Made by a program: the position numbers and the translations under genes
Shown: piece by piece, positions 22,433-22,675 of the stretch
Layout of the letters: each line of letters opens with the position of its first letter
How positions within the stretch are numbered: the stretch's first letter is position 1
The notes under the pieces: model-generated
Seen by the model: only the letters and a program-made list of their open reading frames with translations
Databases searched by the model: none
What the model was told of the DNA's origin: nothing
NCBI RefSeq assembly: GCF_028368995.1
Contig: NZ_JAQNDL010000001.1
Location: forward strand, 1,408,001-1,472,000
Direction: 5' to 3'
Length of the DNA stretch: 64,000 bases
Origin: Nannocystis bainbridge
GTDB lineage: Bacteria > Myxococcota_A > Polyangia > Nannocystales > Nannocystaceae

Positions 22433-22506
22433 GCGGGCGTCGTCTAACAGGCCAGGATCCGGGGTCCTCACCCCCGAGACGCAGGGTTCGAGTCCCTCCG
22501 CCCGCG
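22433..22506 (+). tRNA. tRNA-Glu(CUC), atypical
   Basis: Acceptor GCGGGCG/CGCCCGC; D-arm GTCT..AGGAT; anticodon stem CGGGG/CCCCG with loop TCCTCAC (C at position 33); T-loop TTCGAGT; one T-stem mismatch; CCA not encoded. Confidence 0.8.
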
Positions 22507-22513
22507 CATCAGC

Positions 22514-22587
22514 GCTCTGTTCGGCCAGCGGTTCAGGCCACCTCGCTTTCACCGAGGTTCGCAGGGGTTCGAATCCCCTACAGAGCA
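22514..22587 (+). tRNA. tRNA-Glu(UUC), atypical D-stem
   Basis: Acceptor GCTCTGT/ACAGAGC; D-stem GGCC/GGCC; anticodon stem CCTCG/CGAGG with loop CTTTCAC; T-arm AGGGG-TTCGAAT-CCCCT; CCA not encoded. Confidence 0.9.
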
Positions 22588-22603
22588 AATGTCGCGTCCT
22601 CCC

Positions 22604-22675
22604 GGGTCGGTAGCTCAGCGGGAGAGCGATGGATTGTTAATCCATCGGTCGTGGGTTCGATCCCCACCCGGCCCT
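22604..22675 (+). tRNA. tRNA-Asn(GUU) anticodon on an atypical body (G1-C72, U73)
   Basis: Acceptor GGGTCGG/CCGGCCC; TAGCTCAGCGGGAGAGC D-arm; ATGGA-TTGTTAA-TCCAT anticodon arm; GTGGG-TTCGATC-CCCAC T-arm. Confidence 0.9.

Follow-up and report, generated by a model that had tools for sequence, protein, structure and literature searches.

The subject of this analysis is a small cassette of three tRNA genes, two with Glu anticodons (CUC and UUC) and one with the anticodon GUU, in the genome of Nannocystis bainbridge. The cassette lies on the + strand of a stretch of 64,000 nucleotides (nt) of contig NZ_JAQNDL010000001.1 (positions 1,408,001 to 1,472,000; hereafter the window), and the genes are preceded by a promoter and by a leader open reading frame (ORF) rich in Asn and Glu codons. 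On balance, we regard it as probable that the cassette is a conserved, vertically inherited spare Glu/Glu/Asn operon, which is controlled by a leader peptide through ribosome stalling and whose tRNAs act as replacement decoders. An earlier description of the three genes, made from the DNA letters alone (the original prediction), had proposed backups as one of several possible roles. This idea has gained ground, as extra copies are kept beside a housekeeping set and the leader upstream is written in Asn and Glu codons. The elements of the cassette are listed below; the six same-genus genomes referred to are the source genome and five others.

22194-22217, + strand: conserved block of 24 nt, about 45 nt upstream of the -35 hexamer; near-invariant in the six genomes, with the sequence further upstream not alignable
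22262-22290, + strand: sigma-70-type promoter (TTGACG, 17-nt spacer, GATACT), conserved in all six same-genus genomes
22301-22396, + strand: leader ORF (P0001) of 31 codons plus stop codon, with its ATG 10 nt past the -10 hexamer
22323-22338, + strand: predicted hairpin H1 of 6 base pairs with the third AAU codon in its loop, from the RNAalifold consensus of four same-genus leaders
22338-22370, + strand: predicted hairpin H2, whose loop and 3' arm contain AAC and the first three of the Glu codons; the fourth (22373-22375) lies just downstream
22381-22414, + strand: predicted hairpin H3, a G+C-rich stem of 10 base pairs with the last sense codons as its 5' arm and the stop codon in its loop
22433-22506, + strand: tRNA1, Glu(CUC), anticodon at 22467-22469, C33 at 22466, G73, irregular T arm
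22514-22587, + strand: tRNA2, Glu(UUC), canonical anticodon loop, D stem not Glu-like, 5-nt variable loop, A73
22604-22675, + strand: tRNA3, anticodon GUU at 22636-22638, G1-C72, U4-G69, U73 at 22675, Lys-like body
22679-22712, + strand: two adjoining 3' hairpins, pairing read by eye; the second is kept in five of the six same-genus genomes

Leader ORFs matched to the downstream tRNAs

The block that is conserved within the genus begins about 240 nt upstream of tRNA1. Between 22050 and 22800 the site at 22262-22290 is the sole promoter-like sequence (shuffled sequence gave a mean of 0.1), and similar promoter hexamers occur upstream of related clusters in other genera. Asn is encoded four times in the leader ORF that follows (AAU three times, AAC once), and so is Glu (GAG three times, GAA once). 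These are the codons read by the three tRNAs. The ATG is situated so near to the -10 hexamer that the 5' untranslated region would be very short and the mRNA nearly leaderless in the genera labelled g1 and g2, where the leader ATG is not preceded by a Shine-Dalgarno sequence. The leaders of genus g14 carry GGAG about 8 nt before the ATG.

To place the cassette, 73 genomes of the family (which here represents the whole order) were surveyed by BLAST, followed by ARAGORN on the matches. Clusters which consist only of Glu(CUC), Glu(UUC) and Asn(GUU) genes were identified in 20 of the 73 genomes and in five genera (six genomes of g1, five of g2, seven of g14 and one each of g4 and g15), with two to ten genes per cluster. 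Set aside as other tRNAs were matches in G055 (contig C31), G016, G067 and G064 (contig C147), as was one GUU tRNA within a mixed array of G064 (contig C131). Enough flanking sequence for a survey of leaders was available for 20 Glu/Asn clusters, a second cluster of G057 being excluded because its contig ends 25 nt upstream. For each cluster the ORF richest in Asn plus Glu (N+E) was taken, and the same picking rule was applied to 3000 random 330-nt windows of the source genome. All 20 clusters are preceded by a promoter and have an ATG-initiated ORF of 28-45 codons within 330 nt upstream. Its N+E count ranges from 4 to 11, being at least 4 in 20/20 and at least 7 in 14/20, while among the random windows any such ORF was present in 628, N+E reached at least 4 in 1.7% and at least 7 in 0.2%.

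The leader ORFs share a layout in which Asn codons are located near the start and a Glu-Arg repeat follows later. Codon choice is unusual as well: 46 of the 54 Asn codons are AAT and 8 are AAC, compared with 6.8% AAT in long genes genome-wide, and the Glu codons are divided between GAA (41) and GAG (43), compared with 8.2% GAA in long genes. Between genera the Glu and Arg codons differ synonymously, with the Glu-Arg repeat kept. Within the genus, the indels in the leader ORF are of 3 and 9 nt and those just past the stop codon are not multiples of three; a relative from soil metagenomes displays the same pattern in and after the ORF. The same Glu/Glu/Asn trio was also found in Plesiocystis pacifica SIR-1, again with a promoter upstream and with a 32-codon leader that contains four AAT and five Glu codons.

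Further clusters of spare tRNA genes in the source genome have leaders of their own. A Pro/Leu/Tyr cluster (contig C2, 2356727-2357509, - strand) comprises seven genes, and up to 12 in sister genomes; a promoter is located upstream, and its leader of 25 codons consists to 71% of Leu, Tyr and Pro (25-32 codons and 65-80% across same-genus genomes). A Ser cluster (contig C3, 526095-526398, - strand) with the genes Ser(GCU), Ser(GGA) and Ser(CGA) is preceded by a leader of 26 codons with 32% Ser and a terminal Ser run. Both leaders are conserved in all six same-genus genomes. The third is a Cys cluster (contig C1, 3057230-3057513, - strand) of three to four tandem Cys(GCA) genes, whose leader closes with three consecutive Cys codons in two of six same-genus genomes and has a single Cys in at least two others, including the source genome. 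When the share of each leader's codons was set against the anticodons of each cluster, the four values on the diagonal were 0.27, 0.54, 0.28 and 0.04, and no off-diagonal value exceeded 0.17. No comparable ORFs precede the housekeeping tRNA genes of the genome, apart from the fortuitous frames rich in Ser, Ala or Arg that are common in high-G+C DNA.

Several side observations belong to these clusters. One Leu(GAG) copy of the Pro/Leu/Tyr cluster and the Ser(CGA) copy of the Ser cluster have C33. The Cys leader of the source genome is separated from its tRNAs by a 10-nt tandem repeat in about six to seven copies, which provides Cys codons in every frame. A long array on contig C2 (2556665-2559233) holds about 26 divergent tRNA genes of most isotypes, some with C33 (Asn, Pro) or of odd length, and looks like the long tRNA arrays known as L-arrays; no obvious codon-matched leader lies upstream of it.

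One might argue that the upstream element is a structured 5' leader only, acting as a signal for processing, stability or Rho loading, and that the ORF within it is incidental. Three stable hairpins do fill the leader, third codon positions are as conserved as the others within the genus, and the ATG lacks a Shine-Dalgarno sequence in g1 and g2. However, an ATG ORF of similar length is present in 20/20 clusters and in Plesiocystis despite nucleotide divergence, indels come in threes within the ORF and otherwise past its stop codon, GGAG precedes the ATG in g14, and the amino-acid composition follows the identity of the downstream tRNAs in four types of cluster. We therefore think it quite unlikely that structure alone explains the leader.

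A conserved class of spare tRNAs

ARAGORN placed the three genes on the + strand at 22433-22507, 22514-22587 and 22604-22676. All three belong to the tRNA family of Rfam (RF00005), with scores of 39.7, 59.3 and 69.2 bits at a gathering score of 29, and no Rfam family besides tRNA matched between 21500 and 23500 at an E-value of up to 1. The 7-nt anticodon loop of tRNA1 reads U32 C33 CUC A37 C38 and thus departs from the U33 of canonical elongator loops, whereas tRNA2 and tRNA3 have U33, in tRNA3 together with U32. The T arm of tRNA1 can be read with a bulged C after G49, or with a C49-C65 mismatch and a 5-nt variable loop.

The identity set of E. coli GluRS comprises U11-A24, U13-G22, the absence of nucleotide 47, A37 and a YUC anticodon. 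Measured against this set, which may not be that of the host, tRNA1 retains the Glu-like pairs U11-A24 and U13-G22 as well as A37 and CUC and deviates in C33 and in its irregular T arm and variable region, and tRNA2 has UUC and A37 but deviates in G11-C24, C13-G22 and its 5-nt variable region, with A73 at its end. Bacterial tRNA-Asn has the anticodon GUU and G73, and U1-A72 where GatCAB is used; in tRNA3 the anticodon GUU is present, with U73 and G1-C72 in place of G73 and U1-A72. Judged by these elements, tRNA3 would decode as a GUU tRNA, and an Asn acceptor would be a candidate only. The original prediction had named these traits, and the Rfam alignment agrees with it throughout: C33 and the T-stem irregularity of Glu(CUC); G11-C24, C13-G22, the 5-nt variable loop and A73 of Glu(UUC); and G1-C72, U32, U73 and a Lys-like body of the GUU tRNA, for which Lys(UUU), 82% identical, is the nearest relative in the genome. 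It had also pointed out that none of the three genes encodes CCA. This is correct, though ordinary in this genome, where CCA stands at or just past the 3' end of at most 24 of the 89 credible tRNA genes (102 ARAGORN calls minus 13 probable false ones, which exceeded 80 nt without being Leu, Ser, Tyr or selenocysteine tRNAs or had an undefined anticodon).

The source genome (11.05 Mb in five contigs, G+C content 71.5%, completeness 90%) has its canonical genes for Glu(UUC), Glu(CUC) and Asn(GUU) on other contigs or at a great distance, and the three tRNA genes of the cassette are extra copies. The housekeeping counterparts all have U33, and the housekeeping tRNA-Asn has U1-A72 and G73, so that the comparison with the genome's own Glu and Asn tRNAs which the original prediction had proposed finds C33, G1-C72 and U73 absent there. 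Isotype affinity was judged by identity ranking within the genome and by an EF-Tu T-stem rule. tRNA1 is at most 74% and tRNA2 at most 70% identical to any other tRNA of the genome. A degenerate 25-nt pattern derived from the 3' half of tRNA3 was too general: among the matches listed (80 loci), 66 were located within called tRNAs, and 55 of these were Lys tRNAs of other phyla and four were Asn(GUU).

A second synthetase dedicated to these tRNAs had been suggested along with a search for paralogs of GluRS and AsnRS. Genome searches with PF00749 and PF00152 returned single copies of GluRS, GlnRS, AspRS and AsnRS, together with a GluQRS-like and an EpmA-like protein; a second GluRS or AsnRS was not found with these two families in the 90%-complete genome, and the suggestion is not supported. 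GatB gave a partial match only.

Across the family, the same traits recur. The GUU tRNAs of the clusters have G1-C72 in 23/23 cases, U73 in 21/23 and C33 in 4/23. Among 31 copies of Glu(CUC), position 33 is C in 16 and U in 15, position 37 is A in 23, G in seven and U in one, and position 38 takes all four bases; C33 occurs in two of 26 copies of Glu(UUC). Thus, the spare Glu tRNAs have a fixed anticodon but differ widely at positions 32, 33, 37 and 38. The automated reading of the acceptor end was one base off for a few genes with a 5' base added by ARAGORN, and the tallies of positions 1-72 and 73 of the Glu genes were therefore not relied on. As judged from these comparisons, C33, U73, G1-C72 and a non-Glu D stem appear to be conserved marks of a family-wide class of spare Glu/Asn tRNAs and not damage. 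Two further members of the Glu type, at locus L049 (9544-9618, G064) and locus L075 (1959-2031, G055, read by eye), appear to have 8-nt anticodon loops and received no anticodon name from ARAGORN; they may be frameshift-prone or non-decoding variants. At locus L052 (G054, contig C45, about 616146-617190) the Glu(CUC)-Asn(GUU) unit occurs three times among ten genes, which shows a recent tandem expansion.

Within the genus, the whole cassette is 88-94% identical in five of ten other genomes (G001, G003, G005, G007 and G010, 12-13 Mb each); no copy was found in the other five assemblies, which are fragmentary and 64-88% complete. In all six genomes it is syntenic, downstream of genes for an esterase, a thioesterase, a 1074-residue MFE-2-like protein and a 455-residue kinase-like protein. 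C33 of tRNA1 is present in 6/6 genomes, and the pair G31-C39 of the source genome is A31-U39 in the five others. RNAalifold identified compensatory changes in 4 of 21 pairs of the tRNA1 type (11 sequences), 2 of 22 pairs of tRNA2 (the six same-genus sequences) and 9 of 21 pairs of the tRNA3 type (15 sequences from four genera). In G003, tRNA3 is found in three tandem copies.

These data bear on the view that the genes are drifting relics of a horizontally acquired tRNA array. The same type of GUU tRNA does occur within long mixed arrays of a Kofleriaceae assembly, a Planctomycetia assembly and G064, the gene just downstream of the cassette varies, and the T stem of tRNA2 has lost one base in G007. 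Against this stand the synteny in six genomes, the compensatory changes in all three tRNAs and the conservation of promoter, leader and anticodons, and we consider decay from such an array barely credible. The original prediction would have been undermined by decay without compensatory changes in relatives; what was found instead are compensatory pairs in every one of the three tRNAs and a conserved gene order, and the odd traits appear, by comparative sequence analysis, to be conserved marks. A mobile element was likewise rejected on the synteny in six genomes and on the absence of any match to integrase or transposase families among the ten ORFs of the window scanned (13595-30857).

The variation around a fixed anticodon raises a different possibility, which is compatible with control by the leader: spare tRNAs might exist to survive toxins that cut or modify tRNAs, released by competitors or phages or encoded in the cell's own toxin-antitoxin systems, and the changes in loop and acceptor end would then represent escape. 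Consistent with this, positions 32, 33, 37 and 38 of the spare Glu tRNAs are variable, C33 is also encountered in other spare tRNAs of the genome (Leu-GAG, Ser-CGA, and Asn and Pro of the long array), and phage tRNAs are reported to evade anticodon nucleases by loop mutations (PMC10264068). Furthermore, a sensor of slow decoding is most sensible if intact tRNA, and not the amino acid, runs short. However, no nuclease or toxin was identified among the neighbours of any cluster checked, tRNA2 and several other spare tRNAs have a canonical loop, and the loop variation could equally be due to relaxed constraint. We thus regard escape from toxins as unlikely to be what the spare tRNAs are for, though as a less distant prospect than the other rival explanations.

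Decoding, charging and the proposed switch

Whether the spare tRNAs are suited to the ribosome was estimated with the three-base-pair T-stem rule for EF-Tu affinity (Tables 1 and 2 of PMC3239215). The predicted values are -10.5 kcal/mol for tRNA1 in the bulged-C reading (derived by hand from the table, as the script read the C49-C65 mismatch and gave no score) and -10.6 kcal/mol for tRNA2, close to the means of the two Glu anticodon classes (-10.3 and -10.4). The GUU tRNA has a predicted affinity of -10.5 kcal/mol in 24/24 copies, tighter than the bacterial Asn mean of -9.4 (sigma 0.6) and than the housekeeping tRNA-Asn of the genome (also -9.4 kcal/mol). Over all spare copies the mean is -10.5 for 23 Glu(CUC), 26 Glu(UUC) and 24 GUU tRNAs, with 11 of 84 unscorable owing to non-standard pairs. 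Normal to tight predicted binding makes ribosomal use plausible and argues mildly against a non-ribosomal role.

Such a role, as aminoacyl donors, had been among the suggestions of the original prediction. The reactions to be considered are glutamylation by LanB-type enzymes, peptide aminoacyl-tRNA ligases, cyclodipeptide synthases and the aminoacylation of cell wall or lipids, with decoding features relaxed. In favour of such donors, half of the Glu(CUC) copies no longer have U33 and some have a base other than A at position 37, loops of 8 nt are seen in G064 and probably in G055, and the anticodon, which is an identity element for synthetases, is kept. There is also a precedent in an extra tRNA-Ala(CGC) of Sorangium cellulosum, for which weak EF-Tu binding was measured and a non-translational role proposed (PMC3239215). 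In contrast, every spare copy that could be scored has a normal or tight predicted EF-Tu affinity, no tRNA-dependent enzyme is encoded next to the clusters examined, which were those of this window and of four other genera, and the codon-matched leader points to ribosomal decoding. Thus, we consider non-ribosomal use very unlikely.

In the mechanism that we favour, the operon would be transcribed from its own promoter at 22262-22290, and ribosomes translating the 31-codon leader would report the speed at which Asn (AAU) and Glu (GAA, GAG) codons are decoded. A ribosome stalled at these codons would cover or free other hairpin arms than one that runs to the stop codon; on stalling, the leader RNA would refold, or be shielded otherwise, and more of the spare tRNAs would be transcribed or matured. 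Termination without a T-tract, Rho access to the C-rich 5' portion of the leader and processing are candidates for the read-out. The direction of the switch, with stalling as the inducing event, is assumed from the example of amino-acid attenuators. The induced tRNAs, presumably charged with Glu and Asn, would then serve on the ribosome as replacement decoders.

The leader RNA provides elements on which such a switch might act. In G003 the inner stem of H2 differs in sequence with its pairing kept. The arm sequences of H3 recur in g1, g2 and g4, with a related form in g15, and one of its C-G pairs is U-A in G057 and G011 (read by eye from the leader sequences); in g14, a hairpin encloses the Glu-Arg codons instead. 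In the lowest-energy folds of the leaders of G054 and G055 the segment of the last codons pairs upstream in one and downstream in the other (read by eye). H3 may accordingly be viewed as a candidate switch element, as far as folding predictions go.

A number of observations weigh against this mechanism. No T-tract terminator was found in 22050-22800, including the interval between leader and tRNA1, and H1 to H3 are invariant within the genus and display no covariation among the four same-genus leaders analysed by RNAalifold; together, these two results leave the switch undefined and its direction a guess. The hairpins alone could constrain the sequence, and part of the conservation of the peptide may therefore operate at the RNA level. 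The six same-genus genomes are close kin and amount to about one observation. The lowest leaders, in G056, G077 and G064, have an N+E count of only 4, that of G064 without any Asn codon, and the Cys leader of the source genome, with one Cys codon and a value of 0.04, is a weak case. The anticodon loop of tRNA2 is identical to that of the housekeeping Glu(UUC), so that escape from a loop-targeting agent cannot account for all three tRNAs, and the deleted T-stem base in tRNA2 of G007 is a further blemish. A search of sequencing runs yielded no RNA run with this stretch, and the four runs examined contained soil-metagenome contigs only.

Finally, the GUU tRNA may carry an amino acid other than Asn, to judge from its Glu-like T stem, U73 and G1-C72, which likewise speaks against a plain Glu/Glu/Asn operon. 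The Asn codons of the leader tie the operon to the decoding of Asn codons and count against another amino acid on this tRNA. As a bolder reading, it might be speculated that the GUU tRNA brings another amino acid, such as Asp, to Asn codons during a shortage of Asn-tRNA, because its T stem is tuned like those of tRNA-Glu and tRNA-Asp and its acceptor end would block GatCAB.

Relation to known systems and genomic context

Leader-peptide attenuators are known from amino-acid operons (trpL, hisL, leuL, thrL, pheL) and from pheST (pheM). The cassette shares with them a short ORF directly after the promoter, rich in codons of cognate amino acids whose supply would be sensed, and an ORF end which overlaps a strong hairpin; as in the thr and ilv attenuators, several amino acids would be sensed together. 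It differs in that the controlled genes are tRNAs and not enzymes, that the sensing codons are rare synonyms (AAU, GAA) on an mRNA which is nearly leaderless in this genus, and that mutually exclusive terminator and antiterminator structures with a U-tract after the terminator are not discernible, hairpins alone being present. Thus, the leader may work like an attenuator by analogy, and we do not assign the cassette to that class. T-box riboswitches likewise sense the status of tRNAs in cis and regulate genes of the translation machinery. Unlike the cassette, they bind uncharged tRNA directly and have no ORF, and no T-box match of Rfam was obtained in 21500-23500.

Among accessory tRNA sets, the closest parallel is the trn operon (L-array) of Anabaena sp. 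PCC 7120, which is normally silent and induced when translation is impaired (PMC8421152); a repressor of the array, TrcR, is reported (PMC10272220). In both cases the supernumerary tRNAs are distinct from the housekeeping set. However, the many genes, the coverage of most isotypes and the horizontal spread that characterise L-arrays are not features of the cassette, which consists of three genes for two amino acids, is inherited vertically at a syntenic position within the genus, and is preceded by a codon-matched leader in cis where the trn operon has a protein repressor. The trn paper contains neither 'leader peptide' nor 'attenuat' (PMC8421152). With the phage tRNAs that are reported to evade nucleases (PMC10264068), the cassette has in common that replacement tRNAs differ from those of the host in loop bases beside the anticodon; in contrast to these, it is chromosomal and genus-conserved, the loop of tRNA2 is unchanged and no nuclease is linked to it. 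Specialised tRNAs with weak EF-Tu binding, namely Staphylococcus tRNA-Gly, Helicobacter tRNA-Glu(UUC) and Sorangium cellulosum tRNA-Ala(CGC) (PMC3239215), are similar as deviating extra copies beside a normal one, but the two Glu tRNAs of the cassette are predicted to bind normally and the GUU tRNA more tightly than its class (-10.5 versus -9.4).

What appears to be new is an attenuator-like logic applied to tRNA genes, which joins two known kinds of element, attenuators and accessory tRNA sets. A literature search, with supplementary tables not covered, yielded no account of leader-peptide control of tRNA genes and none of myxobacterial tRNA arrays or C33 tRNAs. Extending the idea, it might tentatively be hypothesized, with rather less confidence than for the cassette itself, that myxobacteria of at least two orders possess an inducible tRNA-replacement system. 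In such a system, operons for Glu/Asn, Pro/Leu/Tyr, Ser and Cys would each be gated by a rare-codon leader peptide and be on only under slow decoding, and the marks C33, G37 and U73 with G1-C72 would keep the spares apart from whatever disables or limits the housekeeping set.

Regulation of tRNA genes is commonly viewed as global and as governed by growth rate and the stringent response. If true, a codon-specific switch read by the ribosome would add a new layer of translational homeostasis and would provide a functional reason for many of the odd supernumerary tRNAs in large genomes of soil bacteria. The leader codons would give a direct handle on the stress to which the spare tRNAs respond, and the conserved C33, U73 and G1-C72 variants would represent natural experiments on the rules of tRNA identity and decoding. 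Plesiocystis pacifica SIR-1, a named strain with the same design, would make the idea testable.

With regard to the remaining conserved elements, the 24-nt block at 22194-22217 may be a candidate regulator site acting on top of the leader, or an UP-like element. The hairpins at 22679-22712 are not followed by a T-tract and were not called by the terminator scan; they may serve as a terminator or as a processing signal. The neighbours of the cassette are an ORF with a weak resemblance to protein kinases (31.4 bits, where the Pfam cut-off is 31.7) and a protein of the PLD family, and the neighbours of clusters in other genera have nothing in common. The gene immediately downstream differs between the genomes, which indicates that the cassette borders a variable slot. 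In the source genome alone this slot is occupied by the PLD-family gene (22748-24013, - strand); in four sister genomes an unrelated gene for a protein of about 497 residues takes its place, and neither gene is present in G007. In the soil-metagenome runs X3 and X4 of one study, a contig each spans 22254-22728 at about 91% identity, indicating that a relative carries the cassette; these contigs say nothing on expression.

Two observations on the genome at large may be added. Its LysRS is of class I, and a class II LysRS was not found in the genome; the class I enzyme (PF01921) gave five identical matches near contig ends (C1, 4517027-4535376, and C2, 3027748-3032597), which are probably a repeat or an assembly duplication. 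In bacteria, A34 is normally limited to tRNA-Arg(ACG). The genome also encodes a tRNA-Leu with the anticodon AAG (A34) and an encoded CCA (contig C1, 3087156-3087240, - strand), which is unusual for bacteria.

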